A stretch of DNA of 64,000 nt from Scenedesmus sp. PABB004 (GCA_014905635.1 JABVCE010000020.1:186001-250000); one strand, 5' to 3'; shown: positions 14,431-49,375, numbered from the stretch's first letter. Translations and numbers: made by a program. The notes: generated by a model from the sequence alone, not told the origin.

Positions 14431-14862
14431 CCGTCACCTAGTAACGCCGGCCCAGCACGGACCCGCCGCGCCGCCACATCCCTGCCGCGCGCCGAGCGGG
14501 CGAGCGCGAGCAGCGGCGGCGCGGTGACGCCGCGCCCGTGCCGCACGCAGGCCGTGCGTTCACCGCCGTTCCGCTGTGCTGGGTCGTCCCAGGCGCCCAG
14601 CCGCGCTGCCAGCCCCGGACGCGCCCGCCAGGCCCCGCTTCCGGGGCGCTGCTGCTCGGGCTTGCGAGCTCCTCCCCGCTCGACCAGGCCGCGCCGCCGC
14701 TCCGCCGCCGCGCACTTCGCCCCGCCTCCATCGCACCGTCACCTGTGCACTGGCCCAGCGGCGCGCTGTCGCTGCCCACCGTGCACTGCGAGACCAACCC
14801 GGCCAAGGCAGCGCGCCCCGGGCGGTCGGCAGGCCTCGCCCGCACGCGCCTGCCAGCCAGTC

Positions 14863-17408
14863 ATGCCCAGCCGCAGCGGCCACGCGCTGGCGCGGCACGC
14901 GCTCGCACTGGCGGCGGCGGCGCTGGCGCTGCTGCTCGCGTCCGCCCCGGCCGGCGCCGCGGCGGCGCGCGGGCCCAGGCGCGGCCTGCTGCTCGCGGAC
15001 GGGAGCGGTCCCGCAGCCTGCTGGACACCGCGGCCGCGCCCAGCAAGGTGTGCAAGCCCGGTACCGGCGTGACACTGGGCGCAGGCAAGCGCGGCACTTG
15101 GTGCCGGCCGTGCAAGGCCGGCACCTGGTCTGCCGGCGGCCTCAACGCCAAGTGCAAGGCCTGTCGGCAGGGGTACAAGACCGTCGGAGGCGGCGCATCG
15201 AGCTGCAGCGACTGCCGGGGCGGCTATGGCCTGCCATTGAGCGCCGGCAACGCAACGAACGTCTGCGAACCCTGCCCGGCCGGCACGTGGCGCGACGCCA
15301 AGCCGGGGGAGGGCATCCAGCCCTGCAACGCCTGCCCTCCGCTGACGACGACAGCAGGCCCCGGCGCCAAGAGCGTCGCCGCCTGCAACCAGAGCCTCGC
15401 CCTCCCCGACGACCCGCTGGCGTCGGCGCTGCTGCGCGGCGCGGCGGAGCTGGGCCCGCAGTTGAGTGACAGTTCGCTGGCGTCTTAGCGGTCAGACACC
15501 AACCCCTGCACCTGGCGGGGCGTGATCTGCTCGGACAGCACGCCGCGCATGGTCACAGCGCTCGACATTTACTTGGGGCAGCAGCCGACCGGCCGCCTGC
15601 CGCGCGCGTGGGCCGAGCTCGGCCCCGGGCTGGAGTCGTTGTACATCACCATCAACAGCCAAGGCAGTGAACAAAGTGGCCTCAGCGACGCGTCGTGGCC
15701 CGTGGAGTGGCGCAACCTCACCGGCCTCAAGCGCCTCCGGCTTGATGGCGTGGGCGTGACCGGCGCGCTGTCGCTCGCGGCGCTGCCGCCGAGCGTGCAG
15801 AGCGTGACTCTTTACAACAACCGCCTCACCTCCCTGGCCGACGACCTCATGGGGGGAGCGCTGCCCGCTCTGGATGAGCTGATCATCCAGCAAGACCCTG
15901 CTTCTTACCCCATCGGCGGGACGCTGCCGGCGTCGTGGGGTGCGCTCGCAAAGTTGTGGTCGCTTGACCTCCGCAGGCAGGCGCTGACCGGCCCCCTGCC
16001 CGAGGCGTGGTCCGGCATGGTGGCGCTCCAAGATCTGCGCCTGAGCGGCAACGCGCTCAGCGGACCCCTGCCTGCCTCCTGGGGCGGCGGCATGGCGGCG
16101 CTCACCAGTCTGAACTTGAGCGGCAACGCGCTCAGCGGTCCCCTGCCTGCCGCCTGGGGCGACGGCATGGCGGCGCTCACCAGTCTGAACTTGAGCGGCA
16201 ACGCCCTCGGCGGCCCCCTGCCTGCCTCCTGGGGCGCCGGCATGGCGGCGCTCATGTTGCTGGACCTGTCGCACAATGCCATCACGGGGCGCCTTCCTGA
16301 TGCGTGGCGCATGGCCAAGCTCTCATGGCTGGACCTGTCGCGCAACAGCATCAGCGGCCCCATCCCCGAGGCCGTTACCGGCGGCCTGGTGGCACTGGGC
16401 ACCCTGGACCTGTCACACAACGCGCTCAGCGGGTCACTGCCCGCCAGGGCTTTCAGCAACGTTGGGGCCCTGGACCTCAGTTACAACCAGGCGCGGCGCC
16501 TGGCTGGGCGGCGGCGCGGCGGCGCGCTGACATAGGCAGGCCGTGCACGGGCTGCGCTGGCAGCTCACGGCAGGCTGAGCACTCACCTGCGGCGTGCCGC
16601 GGTGCTGCCGCTCCTTTGCAGCTGACGGGGCGCATCAAAGACTGGGCGAGATGGACGACGCTTGCCAGCTGCTTCACGGTCAATTTTGCCCACAACCAGC
16701 TGACCGGCCCGCTGCCCGAGGTGCGGTGGGACGGCCCTGGCGGCATCGACCTGTCGGACAACGCCCTCACCTCCACGCTGCCGGCCGCCTGGGTGCAAAG
16801 GGCGTGGACTGAAGGAGGTGGGCTGTCGCACTCGCTGCGCTGGGAACGCTGCTGGCGGTGCCTGAGCGCGGCACATGCTGGCCCAGGCCCAGCTGCCATG
16901 GTCACATGGCGCCCGACTCACATCTGCTGCCGCAGATTGCGGCTGGCGCGTGGACCTCAACCTCGCCGGCAACCAGCTCCGCGGCCCCCTGCCGCCCGAG
17001 TGGGGTGCCTGGACCCTAGACCCTTACGCTGGCCTTGGGGCTGTGTCTGTGGCGCTGGCCTCGCTCAACCTCACCGGCAACCCGCTCAACGCCACGCTGC
17101 CGCCCGAGTGGGGCAACATCACGAGCCTGGGGTCGCTGGACGTGCGGTCCTGCGGCCTGAGCGGCATTTTTCCCGCCGCAGAGTGGGCGCCGATGCGGCC
17201 CGACCGACTTGGCATCAGCGACAACCCAGACCTCTCCGGCTGCCTGCCCCGCGCGTGGCTCAAGCCAAAGGGCTACTCATCGCTTCTGTACTATCAGCCC
17301 AACTGCGCCTGCTCCATGCCGGTGGCGCTGAGCGAGCTGGCGAGCGGCAAGGCGCTGGACCCAGACCCGCTGCGCAACACGCAAATCGTCGGCATTTGCC
17401 CGGCGTGA
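14863..17408 (+). pseudogene. LRR3: Cys-rich-repeat + LRR paralog with a frameshift and a nonsense codon
   Basis: 1-nt deletion near 15009 (GGGAGCGGTCCCGCAGC versus paralog GGGGGTGGCTCCCGCAGC). TAG at 15486-15488 replaces the conserved LRRNT Trp. The first intron has a GC donor at 16491. Confidence 0.85.
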
Positions 17409-27197: not shown

Positions 27198-30100
27198 CCG
27201 CAGGGGGCTGGGCTGGCGGGCGGGTCAGCAGCGCGCGGGCTGCTGCGGGGCGGGTGGCGGTGGCGAGCGGCCGCGCGGCGCGGGGGCGCGCGGCCGCGGC
27301 CGCGAGCGCCGTGAGTGCGGAGGGACCCTGAACTGCGCCCTGCCGGTGCGAACATGGCCGGTCGCCGCGCCGCCCGCTCGCGAGGGCGGCGGCCGCTGAA
27401 GCGCGGCGCGCCGCGGTCGGCAGAGCAACGGGCAGGCCGGGCCTCGCCACACCACTGGCTCGCTGAGGCACCGCCGCGCCGCTGGCAGGCCGTCGGAATA
27501 GCTAGGCCGTCGGATAGCGCTCTGCGAGGGGCCCGAGACGCGCCGCCCCTGATGGCCGGCGCACCGGCCGCGATGCTCGTGGCGATGGCCCTGCTGGCGC
27601 TGGTGGTCGGGTCGGGAGCCGCAGGTGCGTCGCGGCCCGCGAGACGCTCGGCATCGACGCCCATGCCGCTGCGCACGCGCCGCGCCCCTGCGCCTGAGCA
27701 CAAGCCGACACGACTGCTCGGCCACAGGCACGCTGCAGGACGCGCTCTCGACCGCGGCCAGCGGCAGCCCCGTTGCGAGCGCCGCCGCCGCCGCTGCTGC
27801 TGCTGCTCCCGGTGACGCCGGCGACTGCCAGCCCGGGGAGGTCGACCAGCCCATGCAGCTGCTGCATGGTGAGGGGGCGGTCGAGCCAGAGGCGCACGGG
27901 CGGCGAGCGCGACGTCACCGGCTGGCAGCGGCGCGCAGCGCGGTGGCCGTTGAGCTGGTTGTGCCAGCGCTGATCGGCCGCGCGGCTAGGGCTCACACCG
28001 CGCCGCCACCGCAGGGATGTCCTCTGAGCCGTCGCCTGCCAAGGTGCCCATCCCGCCCCTGCCCCAGGGCGAGCGGCCCAACATCCTGCTGATCGTTACA
28101 GATGACCAGGTGCGGGGTCTGGCGCGCGGCGAGCGCAGCGGCGCGGCGCCCTGGCCCACCGCCCACCGGCGCAATCCGCTGCGCGCGCCCCTGTGGCCAG
28201 GGCTACGATGACATTGGGATGCACAACCCGGCCTGGGTGAACACGCCGCACCTCGACGCATTCATGCGTGCCGGCACGCGCTTTGACAACTTTTACACCG
28301 CGCCCCAGGTCGGCACAGGCGGCGGCTAACCGCCCGTGCGGCGCAGGCTGCGCGTCGCAGGCAGCCCGGGCATGGCGGCAGGCGCACGCGCGCCGTCCAA
28401 CCCACCCGACCGCTGCCGCCGCCCGCCTCTGCGCCGCCTGGCCGCCCGCCCGCGTGCCGAGTGCAGTGCGCGCAGACACGTGCCGAGCTGCTCACGGGGC
28501 GCAACCACGCACGCACTGGCGTGCTGCTGGTGCATGCGGGTGCGCGGCGGGCGGCCGCACTGCGACTGTGGATCCGGCAGCGCCTGCGGTCTCGGGCGCT
28601 GCGCGGCGGCGCCTCGCGGGCCTGGGGGCTGTCGGCCGCCCCGCGCCGGGACGCACGGCACGACTCTGCCCTGCCCCTTCCACCCCCTCACCCTTTGCCA
28701 GGCTACGACTTTGTGAGCCGCGACGAGGTCACTGGCGCGGAGCTCCTGCGGCGCGCCGGCTACAAGACCGCGCACTTTGGCAAGTTTCACAACCAACAGA
28801 TTGATGGTTACATGCCGTGGCAGATAGGGTATGACAGCGTTTGGGTGCCCGGTCTCACTGCTGCCAACGCCAGCTTCCTGACCCACAATGGCAGGGTTGA
28901 GCAGGCGGCTCGCGGCATGCCAGACGACGTGATGGCAGACAAGCTGGTCAGCTACATCGCCGACGCTGCTGCCAACACCACGGCGCAGCCGTTCTTTGCG
29001 ACGTTTGCGACCCACGGCATGCATTTGAGCCGCTACCCTGGGTTTGGTCGTCGAGCGTTCAGGTTCTTTCCGGAGCGATACAACACCAAGTATCACAGCA
29101 GGCAGGCCGCACGCGTGCCCGCAGCGTGCGCCAGGCGCTGGCGCCGCCTGCCGCCCGGCGCCGCTGCCTGCCCCACGCTGGCCGCGACCGCCCCGCTCAC
29201 ACCGCGTCGTCGCCTGTGCCCGCGCGCCTCTGCCCGCGCGCAGCGCCAAGTACCGCTCCTTTGCAAAGGACACCCGCGACGTGCGCCTGCGCGGCTGGCA
29301 TGGGGACCAGGGCTCTCAGCTCTGGGCGCCCGGCCGCGCGCTCTGGCCTGCCCTCGCACGCGCGCAGCGCTGACCCGCGCCCTCCGGCTGCCTCGCCGGC
29401 GCCAGGTGTTTGCCATGGCCAACTACCTGGACAGCGTGCTCGGCAAGGTGCTGCGCGCGTTGGACGACACAGGCTTGGCCAAGGTGCGCGCTGCCGCCGC
29501 TGTGCTGCTGCTGCTGCAGCCTGCAGCTGAGCCAGGTCTGCGGCGCGGCAGTGCGTGTGGCGCCCACGGCGGGTCTCACGTGCGCCCGCCCGCGCAGCGC
29601 ACGCTGGTGCTAGTGCTGGGAGACAACGGCAGCTCCCTGACAGATTCACAGCGAAACAACGCCAGAGAGCGCGCGGTGAGCGCGGGAGGGCCGCTGCTGG
29701 CGCCGCACAAGGCAGGCCTTTGCTGCGTGCCTGGCGCCTCACGCCCGCCACCGCCGCCGCCGCGGCTGCAGGCCCGCATGCCGTCGAAGATGGTGGGCGA
29801 GAAGGACTGGGTGTGGGAGGGCGGCGTGCGCGGCTGGCTGGCCGCGCGCGGGCCCGGCGTGCCGGTCGGCGCGGTGGACAGCACGCTGCTGTACACGCCC
29901 GACATTGTGCCCACGCTGCTGGACCTCGCGCGCGCACGCTCGCCTGCCGGCGGCCCAAACCTGCCGGCGTTTGACGGCAAAAGCTTTGCGGCCCACCTGA
30001 GGCCAGCGTCGGCCGTGCAGCACGCCGCGCCGCCCGCGGGCCGGTTTGACGCCCGCACGCTGTTCTTCCTGTCACCTCACTGCTGGGACGCAGATGCGGT

Positions 30101-33100
30101 CCCGCAGCTCGGGCCCGACAGGCGCGTGCTGCGGCCACAGCCGCTGCTGGACTTTGACACCGGCGGCGTGGTGAACGCGCATGAGAGCGAGTACATGATG
30201 CTTGTTAAGCAGCAGCGCGGCGGCGCGCCCCCTGGCTTTGCGCGCTGCATTGCGGTGCGGCACAAGGACTTCAAGCTCCAGGGCCACGACGGCAAGGTCT
30301 ATCGCCTGCCCGGCGCCTCCCGCGTGGAGCTCGGCTGCAATGAGGTGACCGGGCCGCTGCGCGCGCGCCTCACGGCGGAGCTGGGCGCCGCCGCACGTGC
30401 ATGGTGGGCGGGGCTGGTCGAGGGCGCGGACAGCCACGCATTCGCCAAGCCCGTGTTCTATTTGGGCTTCCGCGTCCGCGGGACCAGCATCTTGGCGGCG
30501 GCTGCCCACGAGCGCACACCCAAGTCCATCGTGCTGCTGCCCAACGGCGCGCGCGGCTTTGTGGACCCTGGCGACCGCATGTGCTGGGCCGCGATGGTGC
30601 GCGCGCGTGCTCGGGGCCCCTGCGGCCCCGCCGCCGGCCGCCCGCCAGCCCGCGGCGCGCGTGGCACCACCGCCGCGGCGGCCGCCACGCAGGTGTCCAA
30701 GGCTGGGACCTACAGTTTCAGCGCGCTGCACCTGAGTGCCGCGGCGGCGCGCTTCAGGCTGTCGCTTGGGCCGTTCGCCGCCATCGCCGATGGCTCCGCG
30801 CCGGCGGTCGAGGCCAAGCTGCCGCGCACGGTGCGCGCAGCCCCTACTCGGGCCCCTGCTTGTGCGTGCGTGGTCGCCTGACGCGCCGCCTCGACCTTCC
30901 CCCCCCCCCCCCCCCCGCCTGCGCAGACGGTGGTGAACGGCACGGAGCTTGGCCAGCTCGAGCTGCAGCCAACGGCGGGCCCCGTTGACCTCTGCCTCGA
31001 GTTGGTGACCACCACGTCGCCCGGCCGTCCCGTGCTCAAGTTTTTTGGGGCGCTGCAATCATATCTGGTCCCACACACGCCGCAGAGCAGCAGCCTTGCA
31101 CGCTCGACGGCTGCGGGTGTGGCGGTGGACGACGCCGCTGCGGACGGCCCCGCGGTCGACAGCGCTGCGGTCGACAGCGCCACTGTGGCTGCGTGGGCGG
31201 CGCTGCGGCACGCCAACGGCGTGCCAGACGGCCAGCCGGAGCTGCTCGGTGCCAACATGTACTCGCCGTACGACGCCGAGGGCATCGACGCGTGCGACGC
31301 GTGCAAGCCGCCCGTTTGAGGCACGGCAGCGCTGCTTGCATGTGCCTTGCATGCTGTGCGCGGCGCTCGGACGGTGCAGCAGCATGTTGCGCGCGCACGG
31401 GCGTCTGGCGCAGAGGCTCGTCAAGGACTGTGCATGGCGCTGGACCACCGCCGCTGACTGCGCGCATGTGCTGCCAGTGGGCGACCACCACGCCAAACTT
31501 TCATGTCGGCGGCGCTTCTCCTGCAGGATTGGCTTGGATTTTGACCGGCCGCACACGACTATATGCAGCGCACATCTCTGTGTGAGCAGATGCAGCGCTG
31601 GCCGACTCGTCGCAGGCACGCCCCAGGCGATTTGATGCGTTTGACACTCTGTCACGTTGCATGGCTGCTGTTGTTTGGTCCATGTCGGGCGGCGCACGTT
31701 CTGCTGCGGTTGAGCCACCTTAAACCGGGCACGCCGCTGCCAAGACTGCCGGGTGGGGGTGCGAGCGAGCGTCGGCGCTCCCCCTGTTTGAACGTTCCGG
31801 CTCCGGCCGACCTGCACTGCCACGCGGGCTGCACCACCAACCTTGTGCCTAGGCACGGAGCGTAGTATGACTGCTAGAGCAGCTGGGCATGATCCAGCAT
31901 TTACTACGCATTTACACGCAGGCCGGCTCCGACGTCGTACTGCGCCCTGTTCAGACGTGACGGCTGCATGGACGGCGGGGCCCGCAGCAGCTCGCAGGGC
32001 GGCATGGGTCGGGCTGGGCTGGTAAAGGCGGCCAGGGGCGGGCGTGACGGCGCAGGGGGCTGGGCTGGCGGGCGGGTCAGCAGCGCGCGGGCTGCTGCGG
32101 GGCGGGGTGGCGGTGGCGAGCGGCCGCGTGGCGCGGGGGCGCGCGGCCGCGGCCGCGAGCGCCGTGAGTGCGGAGGGACCCTGAACTGCGCCCTGCCGGT
32201 GCGAACATGGCCGGTCGCCGCGCCGCCCGCTCGCGAGGGCGGCGGCCGCTGAAGCGCGGCGCGCCGCGGTCGGCAGAGCAACGGGCAGGCCGGGCCTCGC
32301 CACACCACTGCTGGCTCGCTGAGGCACCGCCGCGCCGCTGGCAGGCCGTCGGAATAGCTAGGCCGTCGGATAGCGCTCTGCGAGGGGCCCGAGACGCGCC
32401 GCCCCTGATGGCCGGCGCACCGGCCGCGATGCTCGTGGCGATGGCCCTGCTGGCGCTGGTGGTCGGGTCGGGAGCCGCAGGTGCGTCGCGGCCCGCGAGA
32501 CGCTCGGCATCGACGCCCATGCCGCTGCGCACGCGCCGCGCCCCTGCGCCTGAGCACAAGCCGACACGACTGCTCGGCCACAGGCACGCTGCAGGACGCG
32601 CTCTCGACCGCGGCCAGCGGCAGCCCCGTTGCGAGCGCCGCCGCCGCCGCTGCTGCTGCTCCTCCTGGTGACGCCGGCGACTGCCAGCCCGGGGAGGTCG
32701 ACCAGCCCATGCAGCTGCTGCATGGTGAGGGGGCGGTCGAGCTCACGACGCACGGGCGGCGAGCGCGCAGCGCGGTGGCCGTTGAGCTGGTGTGCCAGCG
32801 CTGGCGGTCGGCCGCGCGGCTAGGGCTCACACCGCGCCGCCACCGCAGGGATGTCCTCTGAGCCGTCGCCTGCCAAGGTGGCCCATCCCGCCCCTGCCCC
32901 AGGGCGAGCGGCCCAACATCCTGCTGATCGTTACAGATGACCAGGTGCGGGGTCTGGCGCGCGGCGAGCGCAGCGGCGCGGCGCCCTGGCCCACCGCCCA
33001 CCGGCGCAATCCGCTGCGCGCGCCCCTGTGGCCAGGGCTACGATGACATTGGGATGCACAACCCGGCCTGGGTGAACACGCCGCACCTCGACGCATTCAT

Positions 33101-36100
33101 GCGTGCCGGCACGCGCTTTGACAACTTTTACACCGCGCCCCAGGTCGGCACAGGCGGCGGCTAACCGCCCGTGCGGCGCAGGCTGCGCGTCGCAGGCAGC
33201 CCGGGCATGGCGGCAGGCGCACGCGCGCCGTCCAACCCACCCGACCGCTGCCGCCGCCCGCCTCTGCGCCGCCTGGCCGCCCGCCCGCGTGCCGAGTGCA
33301 GTGCGCGCAGACACGTGCCGAGCTGCTCACGGGGCGCAACCACGCACGCACTGGCGTGCTGCTGGTGCATGCGGGTGCGCGGCGGGCGGCCGCACTGCGA
33401 CTGTGGATCCGGCAGCGCCTGCGGTCTCGGGCGCTGCGCGGCGGCGCCTCGCGGGCCTGGGGGCTGTCGGCCGCCCCGCGCCGGGACGCACGGCACGACT
33501 CTGCCCTGCCCCTTCCACCCCCTCACCCTTTGCCAGGCTACGACTTTGTGAGCCGCGACGAGGTCACTGGCGCGGAGCTCCTGCGGCGCGCCGGCTACAA
33601 GACCGCCCACTTTGGCAAGTTTCACAACCACAACATTGATGGCTACATGCCGTGGCAGATAGGGTATGACGACGCATGGATTCCTGGCCTGACCTCTGCC
33701 AACGCCAGCATCCTGACCCACAATGGCCAGTTTGACGAGCAGGGCCGCGGCATGCCCGACGATGCAATAGCAGACAAGCTGGTCAGCTACATCGCCACCG
33801 CTGCTGCCAACACCACGGCGCAGCCGTTCTTTGCGACGTTTGCGACCCACGGCATGCATTTGAGCAACTTTCGTGCTTGGGGGGACCAACCGTTCAGGTT
33901 TTATCCTACGCGATACAACACCAAGTATCACAGCAGGCAGGCTGCACGCGTGCCCGCGTGTGTGCCGGGCGCCAGGCGCTGGCGCCGCCTGCCGCCTGGC
34001 GCCGCTGCCCTACGCTGGCCGCTACCGCCCCGCTCACACCGCGTCACCGTCTCTGCCGGCGCACCTCTGCCCGCGCGCAGCGCCAAGTACCGCTCCTTTG
34101 CAAAGGACACCCGCGACGTGCGCCTGCGCGGCTGGCATGGGGACCAGGGCTCTCAGCTCTGGGCGCCCGGCCGCGCGCTCTGGCCTGCCCTCGCACGCAC
34201 GCAGCGCTGACCCGCGCCCTCCGGCCGCCTCGCCGGCGCCAGGTGTTTGCCATGGCCAACTACCTGGACAGCGTGCTCGGCAAGGTGCTGCGCACGTTGG
34301 ACGACACAGGCTTGGCCAAGGTGCGCGCTGCCGCCGCTGTGCTGCTGCTGCTGCAGCCTGCAGCTGAGCCAGGTCTGCGGCGCGGCAGTGCGTGTGGCGC
34401 CCACGGCGGGTCTCACGTGCGCCCGCCCGCGCAGCGCACGCTGGTGCTAGTGCTGGGAGACAACGGCAGCTCCCTGACAGATTCACAGCGAAACAACGCC
34501 AGAGAGCGCGCGGTGAGCGCGGGAGGGCCGCTGCTGGCGCCGCACAAGGCAGGCCTTTGCTGCGTGCCTGGCGCCTCACGCCCGCCACCGCCGCCGCCGC
34601 GGCTGCAGGCCCGCATGCCGTCGAAGATGGTGGGCGAGAAGGACTGGGTGTGGGAGGGCGGCGTGCGCGGCTGGCTGGCCGCGCGCGGGCCCGGCGTGCC
34701 GGTCGGCGCGGTGGACAGCACGCTGCTGTACACGCCCGACATTGTGCCCACGCTGCTGGACCTCGCGCGCGCACGCTCGCCTGCCAGCGGCCCAAACCTG
34801 CCGGCGTTTGACGGCAAAAGCTTTGCGGCCCACCTGAGGCCAGCGTCGGCCGTGCAGCACGCCGCGCCGCCCGCGGGCCGGTTTGACGCCCGCACGCTGT
34901 TCTTCCTGTCACCTCACTGCTGGGACGCAGATGCGGTCCCGCAGCTCGGGCCCGACAGGCGCGTGCTGCGGCCACAGCCGCTGCTGGACTTTGACACCGG
35001 CGGCGTGGTGAACGCGCATGAGAGCGAGTACATGATGCTTGTTAAGCAGCAGCGCGGCGGCGCACCCCCTGGCTTTGCGCGCTGCATTGCGGTGCGGCAC
35101 AAGGACTTCAAGCTCCAGGGCCACGACGGCAAGGTCTATCGCCTGCCCGGCGCCTCCCGCGTGGAGCTCGGCTGCAATGAGGTGACCGGGCCGCTGCGCG
35201 CGCGCCTCACGGCGGAGCTGGGCGCCGCCGCACGTGCATGGTGGGCGGGGCTGGTCGAGGGCGCGGACAGCCACGCATTCGCCAAGCCTGTGTTCAACCT
35301 GGGCTCTGATGATGTCTTGGGGACCAGCATCTTGGCGCCTGGTGCCCACGAGCGCACACCCCAGTCCATCGTGCTGCTGCCCAACGGCGCGCGCGGCTTT
35401 GTGGACCCTGGCGACCGCATGTGCTGGGCCGTGACAGTGCGCGCGCGTGCTCGGGGCCCCTGCGGCCCCGCCGCCGGCCGCCCGCCAGCCCGCGGCGCGC
35501 GTGGCACCACCGCCGCGGCGGCCGCCACGCAGGTGTCCAAGGCTGGGACCTACAGTTTCAGCGCGCTGCACCTGAGTGCCGCGGCGGCGCGCTTCAGGCT
35601 GTCGCTTGGGACATTTGCTGCTATCGTCGATGGCTCCGCGCAGGCGGTCGAGGCCAAGCTGCCGCACACGGTGCGCGCAGCCCCTGCTCGGGCCCCTGCT
35701 TGCGCGTGCGTCGTGGTCGCCTGACGCGCCGCCTCGCCCTGCCTCGCGCCCGCCTGAGCAGACGGTGGTGAACGGCACAGAGCTTGGCCAGCTCGAGCTG
35801 CAGCCGACGGCGGGCCCCGTTGACCTCTGCCTCGAGCTGGTGACCACCACGTCGCCCGGCCGTCCCATGCTCAAGTTTTTTGGGGCGCTGCAAGCTTATC
35901 GAATGAAGGTTGAGGCACCGAGCGGTGGCCTTGCACACTCGGTGGCCGCGGGTGCGGCGGTCGACAGCGCCGCCGCGGACGGCGCTGCGGTTGACAGCGC
36001 TGCGGTCGACACTGCATCTGCGGCTGCGTGGGTGGCGCTGCGGCGCGCCAACGGCGTGCCAGACGGCCAGCCGGAGCTGCTCGGTGCCAACATGTACTCG

Positions 36101-36153
36101 CCGTACGACGCCGAGGGCATCGACGCGTGCGACGCGTGCAAGCCGCCCGTTTG
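27198..36153 (+). repeat. Recent tandem duplication of a ~4.1-kb sulfatase cassette (27198-31318 and 32052-36153)
   Basis: Upstream sequence and most introns are letter-for-letter identical. Homology begins at GCAGGGGGCTGGGCTGG and ends at the stop codon. Confidence 0.95.
27552..31319 (+). CDS. Sulfatase copy 1: secreted formylglycine-type (S1) sulfatase with a C-terminal beta-sandwich-like domain; spliced
   Basis: Signal peptide MAGAPAAMLVAMALLALVVG; RPNILLIVTDDQ/GYDD; TPHLD; CAQTRAELLTGR; AGYKTAHFGKFH; ATHGMH; YLDSVLGKVL; LGDNG; GEKDWVWEGGVR; DIVPTLLDLA; FDGKSF. Confidence 0.9.
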
Positions 36154-36154
36154 A
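32408..36154 (+). pseudogene. Sulfatase copy 2 with a +1 frameshift before the catalytic domain (pseudogene or assembly error)
   Basis: AAGGTGGCCCATC at ~32875-32887 versus AAGGTGCCCATC in copy 1. The shifted frame stops at about 32938. The remaining exons are open. Confidence 0.75.
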
Positions 36155-36284: not shown

Positions 36285-37420
36285 GCATGACTGCGCTGGG
36301 GGGAGCTCGTGGCATGGGGCGCGGCCGCCAGGCTTGGCGCGCCGCGGGGCTGAGCAGGCAGCGTGCGCTGCTGGCGGGGGTCGGTGAGTGATGTGGGCGC
36401 GGCCAGCTGCGGAAGGCGCTGGCTCTTCAACGACAGGTGGGAAGCACTGCCGGCGGCTGCGCATGGCCGGCCCTGCAGCACTGGGCGGCTCGCCTGAGCG
36501 TGGAGGGGCGGCTGACCAAGGCAGCGCACGGCTGCGACGCTTGCACGTGCTGTTGGTGGGCGCCGTGGTGGGGAACGCTGCGTGGTGCCGCCGTGCTAAA
36601 AGTGCGGTGGCGGGCACAGGATGCACTGGCCTTTGGGATGGGGCTGGTTTGGGTGCGTTGGCTGCTGCGCACGCAACTGCTGGGGGCGTCCAACGCTCTG
36701 GGGCGCCGCTGGCTGCGCGCGTGCGCTGCCGGCGTGGGCATTCACTGACCCATGCACATGGCGGTGCATTCACAGACTCGGCGACTCAGTTGGTGCCGCA
36801 AAGGTTGGTGCGGGCGCGCCTGCTGGCTGGGCGCCTCAAAGCACGCCGCACCGGCGGCATGCGCGCAATTGCGCTGCTTGGGCGGGCTAATGAATGAATG
36901 AACGCTGATTGAGTGTGCGGAGGCCGCGAGCTTGTACACAACCAGGTGTGTCTCACAACTGCCCACATTTGCGTCCGGCGTGGGCACTTTGCTGGGGCGG
37001 GTGGCAGGGAGGGGGGGCTGCTCAGCTCGCGCAGCTGCTGTGGATAGATCTCAACGCAGGCGGCGCCACTTGCTGCGCGCGTGCGCGGCCGGCGCGGACA
37101 TTCTCCAGTTTCATTCAAGAGCGGCGTGGGTGATGCATGATTGCGCTTTGGCTTGCGCTGGTCTGCGCGACGCGCTGCCGTTGGACACAGGCGAGGCATC
37201 ACTGCTCCGACGGTCGTGAAGGCTGGCCAAGGCTGCGGCGCATGCACAGCGCTGGTGGGTGGCGGCGGTGCGGTGGTGGGGCAACGCCATGCTGCGCGTG
37301 CTGAGGCGCCAGGCACACTGATCTTGGGCGGGGACGGGCTGGGCGTGGTGGCTGCTGTGCGCTGCTGCCGAGTCCGTGGCGCTCAGGGGGGCGGCGCTGG
37401 CTGCGCGCGTGTGCAGCCGG
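36285..37420 (+). repeat. Degenerate intergenic repeat family (copies downstream of sulfatase 2)
   Basis: GGGGGAGCTCGTGGC, ACAGGTGGGAAGCACTGCCGGCGG (~36433), GGCTGGCCAAGGCTGCGGCGCATGCAC (37221) and GGCGCTGGCTGCGCGCGTG, all as found after LRR2 and LRR3. Confidence 0.78.
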
Positions 37421-37883
37421 GGCGAGCATGCATGACTGCCGTTGGACGATCCAACAGCCGCGGCTGGCTGCCGCTCAACGTTGTTTGAACGCACGCGCCG
37501 GCCTCAGGTTGTCGGCATTCCACCTAAGCTCTCACGCGCGCCGGACGGCTGCAGCGCTTGGGCCCACGTGGGCCACGTCGGGCGGCGCACATTCAACGGC
37601 TGGTGCCCGCGGTTTGTGTGTCTCACGCACACCAATAAGTGGCCGGCAGGCTGGCTGTGCCAGGGCAGCACTGGCGCGGGGGGCTGGTGGCGCGGTCAAG
37701 TTGCCCAGCGCGCGCCGGCGGCGTGTCAACACCTCCGCGCAACGCCGCTTTTGCCGGGCACCGTGCACGCACGCGCGAGCACCCGCCCGCGCTCAGCCTC
37801 CAGGCGCGTGCAGCGAGCAGGCCCCAAGAGACCCGCCCTGAGCGCGCAGTGACGCGCTGGGGCCCCGGCCGCTTGCCCACCTG

Positions 37884-40876
37884 CTACGGCGCCGCCGCCC
37901 CGGCCCAGGCTGCCAGCTGCGCGCGCCGCGCGGGCGGCACTGACGGCGGCACCTTCGCCAGCGCGGCGTCAAAGTCGTCCGGCGTAAGGGCGCGCGCCGC
38001 GCGCTGCGGGCGCGCGGCGGAGGGCCGGAGGGGGTTTGGGTGGCGGCCGCGCGCGCGCAGCCGCGCAAAGCGCCGCGCGCAGCGGCCGGCCGCACCTCCT
38101 GCACCGGCCGCAGCGCCGCCTCGTGGCAGAGCTGCAGCAGGTCTGCGCAGCTGTAGCCCTCCGTCGCCCTGCCGCGCGCGCGCGGCAGCGCCCGGGCAGC
38201 GGCATCGGCGCGGCGCCGGCGCGGCCCGCGCGCGTACGGCGGCGCGGCTGCGCCGAGCCCCGCCGCCAGCGCCTCACCGCGCCAGGCGCTCGACGTCTGG
38301 CACGCCCAGCGCCGCGTCGCGGGACATGAGCCAGCCCGAGAGCAGCTCCTCCCTGCTCTCGGCGGCGGGCAGGTCCAACAGCAGCCGGTGCGGCAGGTGC
38401 GCCAGCAGCGCCGGGTCGAGCGCCTCTGGGTGGCGCGTCGCCAGCACCACCACGACCGGCGCGTGAGCGCAGGCCGGGGGGTGGCGCGGCTGCGCTTGCG
38501 CCTGTGAGACGTCGGCGGTCGCGGCGGCGGCGGCGGCGGCGGCGGCATGGGCAGGGCGCCGCGCGTGCGCCCGGGGCCAGGCTCAAGCACCACGCCTGAG
38601 CAGCTCGACCGCGCTGCGCCGCCGGGGCGCCTGCCCAGGTCGCCGCACGCACCCTGGGCTGCGGTGTCGCCTCGCCGCCGCCCCCGACCAGCCCCCAGGG
38701 CGGCCGCTTGGCGGCGGCCGGCGCGGGCGACGCCATGCCGCTGCCCGCGCCGGCGCCCTGGCGGCCGCCGACGGGGCGCTGCTCGAGCTGCGCCTGCGCG
38801 TCCGCCAGCGCTTGCAGCTGCACCGCAAGCTCCACGACCAGCCGCTGCCGCGCAGCTGCGCCGCCGCCGCCGGCCTCGCTGCCGGGGCGGGGCTCCGCGG
38901 GGAAGCTCCGGTGCGCGTCGTCAAACGCAACCTGGCGGCGCGGCGCGGCTCGAGCGTGAGCTGTGGCGCAGCCGCCACAGAGCGCCCCCCCCTCCCCCGC
39001 GCGCCCCCCGCGCGCCCCTGCGGCACGGCCAGCGGCGGCCGCGGCGCCGCGCTGCAGCCCTGCGGCGGCGGCGCGCGGCGGCCGTGGCCCCACGCGCGCG
39101 CGGCTGGCGCGGCTGGCAGCTCACCACGCACGGCGCCGCCCGGCGCGCGACCTGCGCGGCGCGGCGCAGCGTGGGCGCGCGCGCGCGGCGGCGGCGCGGC
39201 CGCGCGCGGCGAGGCGCCCGGAGCGACCGGGCGCGGCGCCGCCGCGGCCGCACGCGCGCGCGCACCTTGAACAGCGCGCGCAGCAGCTGCGGCCCCTGCT
39301 CCGCGTGGCTGCGCAGCAGGTCGCCGGCGGGCAGGTACAGTAGGTGGCTGCCCATCTCTTGCGCGAGACGGTGCAGCAGCTCCGTCTTGCCCGCGCCGCT
39401 GGGGCCAACCAGCAGCACGGCGAGCGACGCATACCCCGCCGCGCGGCCGCCGGCGCGCTTGAGCGGCGCCACGGCGTGCGCCTGCAGCCAGCGCTTTGCG
39501 GGCTCCGGCCCCGCGAGCGCGCCCTCCGGCGCGTCTGCACGCAGCGCGGGGGTGGCGGCATCGGCGGCGGCGGCGGCAGGCTCGGCTCCGGTGCTTGGCG
39601 GTCAGGCGGTTGGCGCCCGCGCGCGCGCGCGCTCACCCGGGTCCGTGATGCGCATGCAGCGTTCGACCAGCGCCTCCAGCGCCCGCCCCTCCTGCCCCGG
39701 CGCCGCCTCCGGCCCGGACGGCACCGTGCGCCGCGCCGGCCGCTGCAGGGGCGTGGGCGGCGGCGCCGCGGGCGCGAGCGCAGGCGCGGCGGGCAAGGGC
39801 GCCGCTGCGGAGCCGTTTGCCGCTGGCGCCGGCGCCGGCCGGCGGGCGGCCGACGCTGCGCCCGCGCCGGGCACGCGCGGCTGGCTGGGCGCGACGCGCC
39901 GCGCCGAGCCCAGCACCGCCGCGCGTGGCGACAGCAGGGTGCTGGCCGCCGTGCCCGGTGCGGCGGCTGCGGCGACGCCGTCCGCGCACAGCGGGCCGCC
40001 AAACGCCCGCACCTGCTGGCGCGGCGGAGTCACCGCGCCCGGCTGGGCCGGCGCCGCGGCGGCCGCGCTGCGGGCCAGCCGGCCTGCCGCCGTGGGCGCC
40101 GCTGCGCTGCCCGGCACGCGCACGCGGACGGGTGTGTTGAGCACGCCGGCCTGCTGCGGCTGCACGCGCGCCAGCGCGCCGCCCGCGCCCCCCGCGGCCT
40201 GCCGGCCCGGCGCCGGCAGCCTGCTCGGCGTCGCGGCGGCCTCCGCGCGCTCGCGCCGCAGCTGCGCTCCCGCCGTGTATGACGACGCAGCGGCCGCCTG
40301 CTGCTGCTGCGGCGGCGGCGTCCTGCAGGCGGCCGGCGCGGGCGCCGCGCGCGCCCCGCGTGCGCCGACGTCGGGCGGCGCCACGCAGAGCTCCGCGAGC
40401 GCTGCGGCGATCGTCGCTGCCTGGTCTGGCCGCACGACGCTGCCGGCATCGTCGGCGGGCAGCGCCACGGGCTGCCCCGAGAGCCTGCAGCTGCTCATGC
40501 AGCCGGCGCCGGACGCCGCCCGCCGCGCGTCGCCGTCCTGCGGCACCGCAGCCAGCTGGTCGCCCCCGCCGGGGCACGCGCCTGGGCGGCGGCGGCGGTC
40601 GGCGGCCGGTCGGCGGGCGCGCGCTGCAGCATAAGGGCCCTGCCTCCCCCTGAATAGCGCTGCCGGTGAGCAGGCCGTTCACGCACCTGGGCTGCCGCTC
40701 TGCTCGCCGCTCGCGCGCAGCAGCTCGTCGACGATCGCGGCGCTGCTCACGCCGTTTGCGCGCACGCCGTGCTCCTTGGCGAGCGCCTGCAGGTCCTTGC
40801 GGCTCAGCGCCTCCAGCTCGGCCCGCAGCTCCAGGCGCTCAACCTCCAGCTCCACGGAGTGCAGCGGGCTCGCCAT
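37884..40876 (-). CDS. Katanin/spastin/fidgetin-clade AAA+ protein with degenerate catalytic motifs and an N-terminal SAP/HeH-like motif; spliced
   Basis: VLLVGPSGAGKT (Walker A), LLRALFKVARRAAPCV/VAFDD, VVVVLATRHPEALDPAL, LDLPAAESREELL, ATEGYSCADLLQLCHEAALRPV, LTPDDFDAALAKVPPSV. Exon 1 gives LEALSRKDLQALAKEHGVRAN; its linkage to the AAA exons is inferred. Confidence 0.78.
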
Positions 40877-41473
40877 GTCGTCGCGCTGCTCGCTGGCGGC
40901 GGTTGAGGGCTGCGGAAGCGCCGGCAGCCCGCAGCGCTGCCGTCCGCGCCAGTGCGTCATCGGGTTGAGAACGCAGCGAGCGGGCGCTCGTCTGCGCGCG
41001 GACGCCGCCGGCTGTCATTCGCGGTTTGCGCAGCGCGCTGGCCGTCATTCGCAGGTTTGCGCGGCGAGTTGCGCCGCTCCACTCGGGGAGCCTGTGCGCC
41101 GCGCTGCCTCCCGTCGCACCGCGAGAGCAGCTCGAGAGGTCACCTGTCGGTCCCGGCACCCGCCCGCCGCCGCCGCCCGCGCGAGCCCCGCGGCGCAGAT
41201 GTGACCGAGAACGTGCCATCAGGCCGCACGCTGCACAGACCCGATCCCGAGCCCCACACCGGCGCAACTAGGAGGTGTGGGCTAATAGGTGTGTAGTCAG
41301 TCAGAGGGCAGTCACGCTGGCATTTTGAGAAACCCGCCCCACGTCTCCAGCAGCAAAGCTCGCGCGGGCGCTTGTGCCCGTCCGTGAGCAACGTACCCGA
41401 CGCGCGTGCGCGACCATCGCAGCAAGGGCAAGGAAAAGCAAGTTCTTTGCGTGGCAGCCACCCTGCGCATACA

Positions 41474-44400
41474 TCAAATGGGCGGCTTGCACGCGTCGCA
41501 CGCGTCGATGCCCTCGGCGTCGTACGGCGAGTACATGCTGGCACCAAGCAGCTCCGGCTGGCCGTCTGGCACGCCGTTGGCGCGCCGCAGCGTCGCCCAC
41601 GCAGCCGCAGATGCAGTGTCGACCGCAGCGCTGTCGACCGCAGCGCCGTCCGCAGCGGCGCTGTCGACCGCCGCACCCGCGGCCACCGAGCGTGCAAGGC
41701 TGCCGCTCGGTGCCTCGACCTTCATTCGATAAGCTTGCAGCGCCCCAAAAAACTTGAGCACGGGACGGCCAGGCGACGTGGTGGTCACCAGCTCGAGGCA
41801 GAGGTCCACAGGGCCCGCCGTCGGCTGCAGCTCGAGCTGGCCGAGCTCCGTGCCGTTCAGCACCGTCTGCACAGGCGGGCGGGAGGCAGGGCGAGGCGGC
41901 GCGTGAGGCCACCACGACGCACGCGCAAGCAGGGGCCCGAGCAGGGGCTGCGCGCACTGTGTGCGCCAGCTTGGCCTCCACCGCCGGCGCGGAGCCATCG
42001 GCGATGGCGGCGAACGGCCCAAGCGACAGCCTGAAGCGCGCCGCCGCCGTGCTCAGGTGCAGCGCGCTGAAACTGTAGGTCCCAGCCTTGGACACCTGCG
42101 TGGCGGCCGCCGCGGCGGTGGTGCCACGCGCGCCGCGGGCTGGCGGGCGGCCGGCGGCGGGGCCGCAGGGGCCCCGAGCACGCGCGCGCACCGTCACGGC
42201 CCAGCACATGCGGTCGCCAGGGTCCACAAAGCCGCGCGCGCCGTTGGGCAGCAGCACGATGGACTTGGGTGTGCGCTCGTGGGCAGCCGCCGCCAAGATG
42301 CTGGTCCCGCGGACGCGGAAGCCCAAATAGAACACGGGCTTGGCGAATGCGTGGCTGTCCGCGCCCTCGACCAGCCCCGCCCACCACGCACGTGCAGCCG
42401 CGCCCAGCTCCGCCGTGAGGCGCGGACGCAGAGCGCCAGTCACCTCGTTGCAGCCGAGCTCCACGCGGGAGGCGCCGGGCAGGCGATAGACCTTGCCGTC
42501 GTGGCCCTGGAGCTTGAAGTCCTTGTGCCGCACCGCAATGCAGCGCGCAAAGCCAGGGGGTGCGCCGCCGCGCTGCTGCTTAACAAGCATCATGTACTCG
42601 CTCTCATGCGCGTTCACCACGCCGCCGGTGTCAAAGTCCAGCAGCGGCTGCGGCCGCAGCACGCGCCTGTCGGGCCCGAGCTGCGGGACCGTGTCTGCGT
42701 CCCAGCAGTGAGGTGACAGGAAGAACAGCGTGCGGGCGTCAAACCGGCCCGCGGGCGGGGTGGCGTGCTGCGCGGCCGACGCTGGCCTCAGGTGGGCCGC
42801 AAAGCTTTTGCCGTCAAATGCCGGCAGGTTTGGGCCGTCGGCCGGTGAGCGTGCGCGCGCGAGATCCAGCAGCGTGGGCACAATGTCGGGCGTGTACAGC
42901 AGCGTGCTGTCCACCGCGCCGACCGGCACACCGGGCCCACGCGCGGCCAGCCAGCCGCGCACGCCGCCCTCCCACACCCAGTCCTTCTCGCCCACCATCT
43001 TTGACGGCATGCGGGCCTGCAGCCGCGGCGGCGGAGGCGGCGGGCGTGAGGCGCCAGGCACGCAGCAAAACAAAAGGCCTGCCTTGTGCGGCGCCAGCAG
43101 CGGCCCGCCCGCGCTCACCGCGCGCTCTCTGGCGTTGTTTCGCTGTGAGTCTGTCAGGGAGCTGCCGTTGTCTCCCAGCACTAGCACCAGCGTGCGCTGC
43201 GGTGGCGGGCGGGCGTGAGACCCGCCGTGGGCGCCACGCACCACCGCGCCGCAGACCTGGCTCAGCTGCAGGCAGCAGCAGCACAGCGGCGGCCGCGCGC
43301 ACCTTGGCCAGGCCTGTGTCGTCCAATGCGCGCAGCACCTTGCCGAGCACGCTGTCCAGGTAGTTGGCCATGGCAAACACCTGGCGCCGGCGAGGCGGCC
43401 GGAGGGCGCGGGTCAGCGCTGCGTGCGTGCGAGGGCAGGCCAGAGCGCGCGGCCCGGCGCCCAGAGCTGAGAGCCCTGGGGCCTCCTGTCAGCCGCACGG
43501 CGCACGTCGCGGGTGTCCTTTGCAAAGGAGCGGTACTTGGCGCTGCGCGGGCAGCGCGCGAATAGGGGCGGCGGTGTCGCGCGGTGTCAGCGGGATGGAT
43601 GGTCGCGGCGTGTGCGGGGTCGGGCAGCGCCCGCGGCGCCAGGCGCCAGGCGGCGGGCGCGCGGCGGCCTGCCTGTCTTGGTACTTGGCGTCGTATCTCT
43701 CTGGGTAGAACCTGAACGCTCGACCTCCAAAGCCAGGAAAGTGGCTCAGGTGGATGCCATGGGTGGCCAAGGTCGCAAAGAACGGCTGCCCGCCGCCCGT
43801 GGTGTTGGCAGCAGCGGCGGCGATGTAGCTGACCAGCTTGTCCGCCATCACGTCGTCTGGCATCCCGCGACTTACTTCGTACCTGCCATTGTGGGCGACG
43901 AAGCTTGAATTGGCGGAGGTCAGGCCAGGAACCCATGCGTCGTCGTAGCCAATCTCCCACGGCATGTAGCCATCAATGTTGTGGTTGTGAAACTTGCCAA
44001 AGTGGGCGGTCTTGTAGCCGGCGCGCCGCAGGAGCTCCGCGCCAGTGACCTCGTCGCGGCTCACAAAGTCGTAGCCTGGCAGAGGGTGAGGGGGTGGAAG
44101 GGGCAGGGCAGAGTCGTGCGGTGCGTCCCGGCGCGGGGCGGCCGACAGCCCCCGGGCCCGCAGCGCAGCGCCAAGATTGCACGCGCTGCCGGATCCACAG
44201 CCGCTGTGCGGCCGCCCGCCGCGCACCCGCATGCACCAGCAGCACGCCAGTGCGTGCGTGGTTGCGCCCCGTGAGCAGCTCGGCACGCGTCTGCGCGCAC
44301 TGCACTCGGCACGCGGGCGGGCGGCCAGGCGGCGCAGAGGCGGGCGGCGGCAGCAGTCGGGTGGGTTGGACGGCGCGCGTGCGCCTGCCGCCATGCCTGG

Positions 44401-45179
44401 GCTGCCTGCGCCGCGCGGGCGGTCAGCCGCCCCGTGCCAACCTGGGGCGCGGTGTAAAAGTTGTCAAAGCGCGTGCCGGCACGCATGAACGCGTCGAGGT
44501 GCGGCGTGTTCACCCAGGCCGGGTTGTGCAGCCCGACGTCGTCATAGCCCTGGCCACAGGGGCACGCGCAGCGGCAGGCGCCGGTGGGCGGCGGGCCAGG
44601 GCGCCGCGCCGCTGCGCTCGGCGCGCGCCAGGCCGGCCCGCACCTGGTCATCTGTGACGATCAGCAGGATGTTGGGCCGCTCGCCCTGGGGCAGGGGCGG
44701 GATGGGCACATTGGCAGGCGACGGCTCAGAGGACATCCCTGCGGTGGCGGCGCGGTGTGAGCCCCAGCCGCGCGGCCGACCACCAGCGCTGGCACAACCA
44801 GCTCAACGGCCACCGCGCTGCGCGCTCGCCACCCGTGCGTCGTTAGCTCGGCCGCCCGCTCACCAGGCAGCAGCTGCATGGGCTGGTCGGCCTCCCCGGG
44901 CTGGCAGTCGCCGGCGTCACCGGGAGCAGCAGCAGCAGCGGCGGCGGCGATCGCAACGGGGCTACCGCTGGCCGCGGTCGAGAGCGCGTCCTGCAGCGTG
45001 CCTGTGGCGGGGAGCAGGCGTGTCGGCTTGCACTCACGCGCAGGGGCGGAGCGCGAGCGCTGCGGCATGGGCGCCGATGCCGAGCGTCTCGCGGGCCGCG
45101 ACGCACCTGTGGCTCCCGCCCCGACCACCAGCGCCAGGAGGGCCATCGCCACGAGCATCGCGGGCGGTGCGCCGGCCAT
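41474..45179 (-). CDS. Sulfatase copy 3, inverted, apparently intact
   Basis: Same exon structure and catalytic motifs as copy 1. ATG at 45179; ends ...DACDACKPPI*. Confidence 0.88.
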
Positions 45180-45599
45180 CACGGGCGGCGCCCGCTCGGC
45201 TCGGGCTGTCTGCCGGCCGCCTGCGTCCGAGCTTTGCGGGCTAGCTGTCCCGACGCGCCCAGCTGCGCTCCGGTGTGTCGCAGCAAGCGCAACCTCGGCC
45301 AGCGAGCAAGCGCTTGGTGCCGCACCACCACCGGTGCCGGTGCGGCAGCTGTTTCTGCTGGTTGCTGCGGCTCTCACGCTGCCGAGGTGCCCGGTGCGCT
45401 GCCGCTCACTGTCGGCAAGAAATGACGCCGACTATGCAGCTGGCTGGCTGCCGGCTGCCGGCTGTTGCATGCCGTCAACGACGGCAGTGTCGCGGTTTCG
45501 CGGCGCGCTGCGCCGCCGCCGCCGCCTCGGCTCGCGCCGCCAGGAAGCACCAGGACTTACGCAGCATGCGGCCAAGGTCGACGCAGCTCGAGGCCAGTC

Positions 45600-46110
45600 G
45601 CGACACGCGCAGCGGGCGCCGCCAGCACAGTCGTGCGTGCGCAAGCTTGCGCCGGCTTTAGCCGGCTGCGGCTGCCCGTGCAGGTAGCGGACCTCTGCAT
45701 GCACGGCAGCGCCGCCGCGCAGGCCAGTTAAAAGCCAAGCTCAGTACCCCGTCGCCCACACTCTTGTGTTGCTGAAAAGGCCCGCGCTGGCAGCACACGC
45801 GCGGCCAGCGGCGCCCCAGCAATCGCATGCGCACAGCAGCCGACGCCCAGCCAACCCACCAACTGTCTAAAGTGCACCCAATCGCCCATGCAGTACGGCG
45901 CGCAGCGCGCCGCGCTCCTCAAACCGCTTCCACCCACCGGCGCGCACGTGCGCCGCAGCTTGGGCTCTTAGCCGGCCGCCCCCGTCGACCCCTACGTGTG
46001 CCACCAACCCACACCACAGCGCATGCCTGCTGCCAGTCCCGCGGCGCGCCAAGCCCGGCGGCCGCGACACGCGCAACATGCATCGACCTCCGAGTGCAGT
46101 CATGCGGGCA
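45600..46110 (-). repeat. Degenerate intergenic repeat family (inverted copy between LRR4 and sulfatase 3)
   Basis: The minus strand reads CATGACTGCACT...GCGGCCGCCGGGCTTGGCGCGCCGCGGGACTG, matching 36287-36350, and GGGGCGCCGCTGGCCGCGCGTG, matching ~36700. Confidence 0.65.
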
Positions 46111-46182
46111 TGTGGACAAAAGCAACCGCCCTCCTGGTGCGCAAGCACGCGCACGTTGCTTGGGCTGTGCAGCAGCGGCTGC

Positions 46183-48577: not shown

Positions 48578-49375
48578 GACTTACAGGGAGGCGGAGCGCG
48601 TGCGGGCGGGGCCTGCCCGCCACCCGGGGCGCGCTGCGACTGCGCTGCGACTGCGGGTTGGTCTCGCGCTCGGTGGGCCGCGGCGCTAACGTGGCAGATC
48701 GCGAGGTGACGGTTTCTCGGAGGCCGAGCGAATGGTGCGGCGACTGGGCGTGAAGCGGCCTGGTCGGCCGCGGGCATGAAGCGGAGCTGCAAGGCCCCGA
48801 GAAGCGGAGCCGTGCGGGCGCGCCCGCCCGGCTGGCAGCGCGGCCGGGCGTTTTGCAAGATCCTGCGCTGCGAATCACTGCACGTGCGCGGCACGGGCAC
48901 GGCGTCACCGCGCCGCCGCTGCTGCGCGCCCACGAGGGCGCGGCTCGGCGGCGTCGCGCCAGCCACGCGCGTCCACCGATCGGCGCGCAACTTGCTGTGC
49001 GGCGCCTGCCCGTTGGCGCGAGCGGTGGCAGGGCCCGCGGCTGCGGCTCCGTCACCAGTCCGTGACCAGTCCGTGCGTGCGGTCGCGCGGCGGCTCGCGG
49101 CGCGGTCACGCGCGGCGGCGCCGTCTCACATCAGCATTGCATCGAGTCGCGTGTTTTGTGGGAGCGTGGCACCGCGCATCGTAATCATGCGGCGCCGCCT
49201 CAGTGAGGCGGCCTCACACCCGCTGCTGCTCGGTCTTCCGCGCAGCCCCGCGGCGCCGCCAGTCCCCCGCGCGCCGCCGCCCGCTGCCCACAGCGCGTGA
49301 CGGCCACCCCCCTGCGATAAACGACCGCCCGCGCGGCCCTTTGTCGGCCCTTTGCCGGCGCCGGGGCCGCGAGAG

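Follow-up and report, generated by a model that had tools for sequence, protein, structure and literature searches.

Three clustered S1 sulfatase genes of Scenedesmus sp. PABB004 form a mosaic that probably reflects interlocus gene conversion

The closest described systems are the HMA4 genes of Arabidopsis halleri and the GOT1 gene pairs of Tigriopus californicus. According to the available text on HMA4, coding sequence and short introns of the three tandem paralogues convert together, and conversion falls with divergence (10.1101/2025.10.29.685298). For GOT1p1/GOT1p2 and GOT1Sr/GOT1Sd, both neutral (heterology, insertions and deletions [indels]) and selective readings of divergence are discussed in the accessible part of the report (PMC3728101). 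Here we describe three paralogous S1 sulfatase genes (c1, c2, and c3) in a 64,000-nucleotide (nt) stretch of the green alga Scenedesmus sp. PABB004 (GCA_014905635.1 JABVCE010000020.1:186001-250000; hereafter, the window). The genome is given in the available portion of its description as 39.8 Mb in 77 contigs with 78.5% G+C and 7,092 genes (PMC12571836). The three copies form a mosaic of all pairings, and we consider it probable that the mosaic arose by interlocus gene conversion among old paralogues, an ordinary and known process that left islands of old divergence in place.

The G+C content within the window is 70–83%. When c1 with its upstream region (27199–31319) was compared with the window by blastn, c2 was recovered at 32051–36154 (95.0% identity over 4146 nt) and c3 at 45191–41474 on the minus strand (90.6% over 3811 nt). 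The three copies are homologous exactly as far as the stop codon, and their 3′ flanks are unrelated; the only matches found there are chance-sized (a single 27-nt match for c1 and c2, a single 41-nt match for c2 and c3, and nothing for c1 and c3). Upstream of the ATG, c1 and c2 share 374 nt, and c3 shares only about 33 nt. Exons were assigned with a 12-exon model, which was obtained by transferring the c3 part of a public protein model (P0161) to the other copies via a three-way alignment. The copies and the segments beside them are as follows.

27573–31319, plus strand: c1, S1 sulfatase gene with 12 exons and an intact 805-codon frame
27573–27624, 27728–27868, 28015–28109, 28201–28308, 28467–28539, and 28702–29101, plus strand: exons 1–6 of c1
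29244–29280, 29406–29483, 29598–29675, 29772–30596, 30693–30830, and 30927–31319, plus strand: exons 7–12 of c1
32429–36154, plus strand: c2, in tandem with c1; exact spliced mapping of the NCBI model P0002
41474–45158, minus strand: c3, inverted relative to c1 and c2, with 12 exons and an intact 805-codon frame
27199–27572, plus strand: upstream region common to c1 and c2 only (equivalent to 32051–32428; 98.7% identity over 378 nt)
31320–32050, plus strand: unique spacer of 731 nt after the c1 stop codon, lacking gene-scale homology to the 3′ flanks of c2 and c3

The three-way alignment contained 3640 ungapped columns, 317 of which were polymorphic. The odd one out was c3 at 163 sites, c1 at 79, and c2 at 70, and all three copies differed at 5. 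The site pattern switched 101 times along the alignment, and as few switches were obtained in 0 of 10,000 shuffles. The longest concordant runs comprised 33 sites (c1=c2), 16 sites (c1=c3), and 11 sites (c2=c3), lengths that were reached in 0, 0, and 1 of 10,000 shuffles, respectively. These conflicting relationships along the sequence make up a mosaic of all pairings. An earlier, sequence-only reading of this DNA had proposed that gene conversion homogenises the scaffold and that the alleles of divergent patches are swapped among the copies, and had suggested a three-way alignment with recombination tests as a check. Both proposals were supported, with significant runs in all three pairings and patch alleles that pair differently across c1, c2, and c3.

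Most 100-nt segments of c1 and c2 were 100% identical, and identity was 74–93% around 28770–29240, 30430–30530, and 30730–31220. Exact runs of at least 150 nt numbered seven between c1 and c2 (total, 2420 nt; longest, 726 nt), one between c1 and c3 (190 nt), and one between c2 and c3 (203 nt). Divergence between c1 and c2 in the sharp patches amounted to 13–16%, and the differences between these two copies gather in four large tracts, designated islands 0–3, all of which contain at least one indel.

28046–28771, plus strand: longest exact c1=c2 run, 726 nt (c2, 32881–33606), covering exons 3–5, introns 3–5, and the start of exon 6
27805–28045, plus strand: island 0, mostly intron 2, with a 24-nt indel (c2, 32661–32880); c2 resembles c3
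28772–29226, plus strand: island 1, part of exon 6 and nearly all of intron 6 (c2, 33607–34063)
30452–30596, plus strand: island 2, exon 10 loop past the conserved F/YLG motif, with a 3-nt indel (c2, 35289–35436)
30771–31210, plus strand: island 3, end of exon 11, intron 11, and most of exon 12 (c2, 35611–36045)

In island 0, c1 and c2 differ at 2 of 95 exon sites, with one gap column, and at 6 of 121 intron sites, with 28 gap columns. Island 1, which within exon 6 runs from two residues past the catalytic GKFH histidine to the exon end, has 53 differences in 330 exon sites and 13 in 121 intron sites plus 26 gap columns. Here c2 equals c3 over the first ca. 90 nt (28772–28860), after which all three copies differ, each carrying private changes in the middle of the island. 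In island 2, c1 equals c3 (the two are identical across 30402–30591) and c2 is distinct, with 19 differences from c1 in 145 sites and 3 gap columns; very dense clusters stand beside flawless identity, for example 17 differences in 52 nt. Island 3, in which c1 stands apart from the closely similar c2 and c3, has 51 differences between c1 and c2 in 344 exon sites and 8 in 88 intron sites plus 11 gap columns, and its intron 11 holds 8-nt poly-C and 3-nt indels. The earlier list of three patches corresponds to islands 1–3 and was correct for these; the fourth tract (27805–28045), mostly intron 2, had been overlooked. All four quoted peptide differences were found in the copies, namely NQQID versus NHNID after GKFH, RYPGFGRRAF / NFRAWGDQPF / HFPGFGGRAF across the copies, VFYLGFRVRGTS versus VFNLGSDDVLGTS, and QSYLVPHTPQSS versus QAYRMKVEAPSG.

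We counted exon and intron differences first on the NCBI 10-exon model and then again, together with the estimates of selection given below, on the corrected 12-exon model; the conclusions were unchanged. With the corrected model, c1 and c2 differed at 128 of 2418 exon sites (5.3%) and at 29 of 1292 intron sites (2.2%), with 49 gap columns in the introns. The corresponding values were 6.5% in exons versus 7.5% in introns for c1 and c3, and 6.4% versus 6.8% for c2 and c3, with 103–130 intron gap columns. Introns 2, 6, 7, and 11 differ between c1 and c2; the other seven of the 11 are identical. The patches themselves are not restricted to exons. They take in introns 2 and 11 and almost the whole of intron 6 and carry substitutions as well as indels there, so that divergence is not confined to coding sequence. 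The coding share was 70% within the four tracts versus 64% gene-wide, and when tracts of the same lengths were placed at random, a share as high occurred in 28% of 20,000 trials (P = 0.28). The argument that exons diverge more than introns, contrary to neutral expectation, holds for c1 and c2 only and fails on these counts. The excess of exon divergence is a by-product of one pair and four tract positions, arising because the four tracts happen to fall as they do in a 64%-coding gene, and is not a departure from neutrality. Identical introns with divergent exons among paralogues look like diversifying selection; in this trio the contrast dissolves with a corrected gene model, a count of synonymous sites, and conversion tracts taken as the units of observation.

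Non-synonymous (dN) and synonymous (dS) divergence were calculated as Nei-Gojobori estimates. In island 1, dS was 0.30–0.69 and dN/dS was 0.19–0.50. In island 2, comparisons with c2 gave dS of 0.18–0.20 and dN/dS of 0.44–0.61 (c1 and c2: 0.18 and 0.61), and in island 3, dS was 0.16–0.22 and dN/dS was 0.22–0.53 (c1 and c2: 0.22 and 0.53). Pooling of these three patches gave dS of 0.24–0.29 and dN/dS of 0.29–0.54, and the three densest clusters (after H-L-S, in the YLG loop, and at YLVPH) showed dS of 0.18–1.2 and dN/dS of 0.17–0.87. Outside the islands, dS was 0.010 between c1 and c2, and 0.090 between either of them and c3, with dN/dS of 0.17–0.19 in the comparisons with c3. In no patch and no dense cluster did dN exceed dS. 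High dS, dN/dS below 1, and equally diverged intron sites indicate that the islands are old and are not the product of fast protein evolution. Therefore, the islands are older DNA that escaped conversion, and the earlier picture of exons diversified on a conserved scaffold has to be given up. Gapped realignment of the dense clusters, allowing frameshift pairs, did not restore identity, and a search for a template elsewhere in the window returned only chance matches of at most 16 nt outside the three copies.

We propose the following course of events. Conversion tracts would start in similar sequence and carry the short introns (91–162 nt) along with the exons. Recent conversion would have erased the differences between c1 and c2 along most of the gene, and the inverted c3 would also give and receive sequence. 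Four islands would have escaped recent conversion and kept older synonymous, non-synonymous, and intron divergence alike; they appear to lie mostly in less constrained parts of the protein. Within them, conversion may be blocked by heterology from indels and dense mismatches, and the molecular route may be break repair that copies from a paralogue; the direction of each transfer is likewise presumptive. The unrelated 3′ flanks mean that tracts cannot run past the stop codon, and also that the copies are old and their within-gene similarity has been renewed by conversion. G+C at four-fold degenerate third positions was 0.76–0.80 in the islands versus 0.86–0.88 elsewhere, which is consistent with GC-biased conversion acting on the homogenised parts and gives a hint in that direction only.

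The public annotation of the three copies is faulty. The protein "sulfatase [Scenedesmus sp. PABB004]" (P0002; 818 residues, 10 exons) maps letter-for-letter to 32429–36154, that is, to c2. It conflicts with the family alignment at three places; about 22 residues after the second catalytic histidine, present in every close relative, are missing from it, and its exon 6 donor is GT in c2 only. P0161 (2177 residues; 37000–48580, minus strand) is a chimeric model that fuses an Ephrin-receptor-like/leucine-rich-repeat (LRR) gene, c3, and an AAA+ ATPase gene. It carries LRR, AAA, and sulfatase Pfam domains, and its residues 689–1464 map exactly to c3. Its sulfatase part fits the family: exon 3 is longer, exon 6 reaches a GC donor, SAKYRSFAKDTRD is encoded by a 37-nt exon, and the large exon of P0002 is interrupted by an extra intron. 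With the 12-exon model derived from this part, c1 and c3 have uninterrupted 805-codon frames that end in a single stop, and splice sites are conserved; in c1, every acceptor is AG, and the donors comprise ten GT and, at exon 6, one GC. Homology, splice-site conservation, and a public gene model thus point to this predicted structure. Intron 6 (c1, 29102–29243) would have a GC donor (GCAGGC) in all three copies and be followed by the 37-nt exon at 29244–29280. All three copies have the same intron 10 (96 nt, extremely G+C-rich; c1, 30597–30692; c2, 35437–35532; c3, 42191–42096), which P0002 reads as coding.

In the 12-exon model, the frame of c2 is lost from exon 3 on, at the following position.

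32880, plus strand: one extra G in c2 exon 3 (AAGGTGGCCC versus AAGGTGCCC in c1; c3 also lacks the extra G)

The insertion shifts the frame within the conserved VPIPPLPQGERPN segment, and P0002 sidesteps it through odd splicing of exons 2 and 3. Either the change is a very recent pseudogenising one, or it is a single-base error of the assembly (consensus). Searches of public proteins in three length classes returned no model containing the large exon of c1 and, for the large exon, no further paralogue with more than 55% identity. In sum, c1 is unmodelled, c2 is mis-spliced around a possible frameshift, and c3 is fused to two neighbours. P0162 and P0163, two further long public models from this organism, likewise join a sulfatase domain to unrelated domains, and chimeric models of this kind fit the low gene count (7,092) of the genome.

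The sequences predict a secreted-type S1 (formylglycine-class) sulfatase. The PF00884 domain was found at residues 87–387 of P0002 (134.5 bits versus a cut-off of 25), and 73 solved sulfatase sequences matched at E ≤ 0.001. In an alignment of 91 family sequences, G98, R138, G144, G177, G184, K185, H265, D317, N318, G319, and K345 (P0002 numbering) were invariant and D95, D96, C134, and H187 were nearly so, and all of these residues are identical in c1, c2, and c3. We take D95, D96, C134, R138, K185, H187, H265, D317, N318, and K345 to have catalytic (metal- or sulfate-binding) roles, as in arylsulfatases. The nucleophile motif is C-A-Q-T-R, located in c1 exon 5 (28467–28539) and its equivalents in c2 and c3, with Cys and Arg kept. 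Its third position holds Q where P or A is expected from the consensus C/S-x-P/A-S/x-R given in the available text of a published account (PMC10154612). Across the 91 family rows this position is Q in 11, P in 72, T in 7, and A in 1, and Q occurs mostly in the closest relatives (9 of the 16 rows printed). The C-terminal ca. 400 residues had no Pfam match, and the large exon 10 and the last exon matched no Pfam family even at E ≤ 1; an Atlas feature search gave SGSH_C, in 12–19% of members of bacterial clusters, as the only lead. No substrate is assigned by NCBIfam, none of whose equivalogs reached its cut-off. The last exon of all three copies encodes a Cys-rich C-terminal tail, SP(Y/F)DAE.ID.C.AC.P.(V/I) (c1, ca. 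31240–31316), which is conserved in 9 of 14 family members examined. A sequence alignment with AtsA of Pseudomonas aeruginosa (1hdh) covered only residues 10–42 of exon 6. Family conservation in the islands was 0.60 versus 0.71 overall (p = 1e-11), being 0.63 in island 1, 0.71 in island 2 (not different), and 0.53 in island 3, and island 3 appears to lie largely in a poorly conserved C-terminal stretch and not in a recognisable substrate loop.

Several points weigh against gene conversion with islands left over as the whole account. Island 1 begins at H187+2 and its differences resume at H265+3, so that they flank catalytic histidines. The pooled island dN/dS of 0.29–0.54 is above that of the rest of the gene against c3 (0.17–0.19), an excess that leaves room for some selection for difference. 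Island 2 replaces R-V-R with D-D-V-L, a charge reversal. Furthermore, three sequences come from one assembly, from which neither the direction nor the date of any transfer is derivable; read-based polishing of the repeat could have raised the exact identity of c1 and c2 slightly; and, given the extra G in c2, either the assembly or the gene has a flaw.

The first three of these points would be expected if conversion homogenised the scaffold while selection kept and reshuffled divergent substrate-recognition loops, giving the copies differing specificities. This explanation shares the conversion mosaic with ours and differs only on why the islands persist. It would also draw on a net-charge shift in the loop past the second histidine, a radical change like that in island 2, and on patch alleles that combine differently in the three copies and in metagenome contigs. 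According to the available text of two reports, the sulfate site of S1 sulfatases is invariant and glycan-binding regions vary (PMC10154612), and divergence islands under conversion are sometimes function-linked (PMC3728101). However, dN was below dS in every patch and dense cluster, and the islands include introns and are not enriched in coding sequence; island 0 is mostly intron 2, and island 3 falls mostly in the poorly conserved C-terminal stretch. Each island holds an indel, which could by itself halt conversion, and c2, the copy with the two most derived loops, is frameshifted under the family-supported model. We therefore consider selection for divergent loops unlikely. A narrower version, in which the islands are specificity cassettes (the loops after GKFH, after the second catalytic histidine, and in the C-terminal domain) held apart by selection and rarely passed on whole, seems to us improbable. 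If it were true, strains would carry different combinations of sulfatase specificities, and the mosaics in the contigs would be this shuffling in action; and if the islands did set substrate range, the trio would offer handy natural chimeras for mapping specificity in an uncharacterised algal clade.

A further explanation is that collapsed or mis-polished repeats, or haplotypes placed in tandem, gave a false identity or a false mosaic. DNA of 78.5% G+C (the figure in the available genome description, PMC12571836) is hard to polish, the exact runs between c1 and c2 are long, and the single-base insertion in c2 is typical of consensus errors. On the other hand, the unrelated 3′ flanks and the unique 731-nt spacer are unlike a tandem-placed haplotig, and c3 is inverted and lies 5.3 kb away with another gene between. 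Independent contigs also bear on this. Parts of the stretch occur in five metagenome runs from three studies, and four of these runs were compared with c1. The c1-type island 1 was present in X1 record 3 (28809–28988, one other letter) and X4 record 28 (28888–29081, four other letters). X2 record 14 joins c3-like variants at 30341–30401 to the c2-type island 2, and X1 record 5 joins the same c3-like variants to the c1/c3-type island 2. Over its 997 nt, X1 record 5 has 23 substitutions against c1, 39 against c2, and 26 against c3, and it is a different mosaic (15 sites as c1=c2, 13 as c3, and 9 private changes). The match of X2 record 16 ends at 31319, and its loose end resembles the c3 flank by eye. 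Hence, contigs from these four runs and three studies carry c1-type island 1, both alleles of island 2, and a c3-like break at the stop codon. The contigs are from relatives and not from the sequenced strain; they establish the patch alleles as genuine and as predating the strain split, and there is a hint that the mosaic differs between strains. They are no proof that c1 and c2 are exactly identical. A protein-guided scan and a 36-nt exact pattern scan of a metagenome contig collection were both empty and gave no second complete locus. Taken together, we regard an assembly artefact as very improbable.

Finally, a very recent tandem duplication giving c1 and c2, after which the patches underwent local hypermutation or complex multi-nucleotide mutation, would suit the very dense short clusters beside perfect identity (17 differences in 52 nt in island 2), but it has almost no probability, since the unrelated 3′ flanks mean that the duplication is not recent, the patch alleles are common to c3 and both island 2 alleles were seen in other samples, divergence at synonymous and intron sites within the patches matches that at replacement sites, and neither a cluster template elsewhere in the window nor gapped realignment accounted for the clusters.

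Other genes around the trio are as follows.

37796–39601, minus strand: AAA+ ATPase gene between the convergent c2 and c3 (Pfam AAA, AAA_33, and AAA_lid_3)
2505–4538, 10932–12692, 14445–16532, 58464–60110, and 62153–64000, plus strand, and 46186–48580, minus strand: Ephrin_rec_like/LRR genes or pieces

At least six genes or pieces with Ephrin_rec_like and/or leucine-rich-repeat domains surround the sulfatases in the window, and the trio therefore sits within a cluster of receptor-like paralogues. Upstream of c1, the segment 24800–26200 contains CA/CG-rich short tandem repeat arrays with periods of 20–48 and shows strong strand asymmetry (GC skew, −0.15; AT skew, +0.27). Rfam and tRNA scans of the locus returned zero matches.

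As far as the available text on HMA4 goes, the sulfatase trio resembles that system in having three clustered paralogues, short introns that are co-converted, and a conversion rate that varies along the gene to give a mosaic. The parts that escape conversion in HMA4 are introns of at least 1 kb and neighbouring first exons, whereas those of the trio are exon-plus-intron islands with indels in genes whose introns are all short. The trio also has one inverted copy, unlike HMA4, and is known here from one genome. With the GOT1 genes, going by the accessible part of that report, the trio shares the alternation of high and low divergence under ongoing conversion, in which rare transfer of an island makes new combinations. 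The GOT1 pair that shows exon islands lacks both introns and indels, a fact that favoured selection there, whereas the sulfatase islands have both. Relative to the S1 family (PF00884; PMC10154612, available text), all three copies have the N-terminal alkaline-phosphatase-like domain and the family-invariant residues. The C-A-Q-T-R motif and the ca. 400 extra C-terminal residues, without a Pfam match and ending in a conserved Cys-rich tail, set them apart from the consensus. The trio is thus a fresh example of an already known process, the gene conversion mosaic, and offers a clean case of three-copy concerted evolution in a green alga of 78.5% G+C in which one converting partner is inverted.

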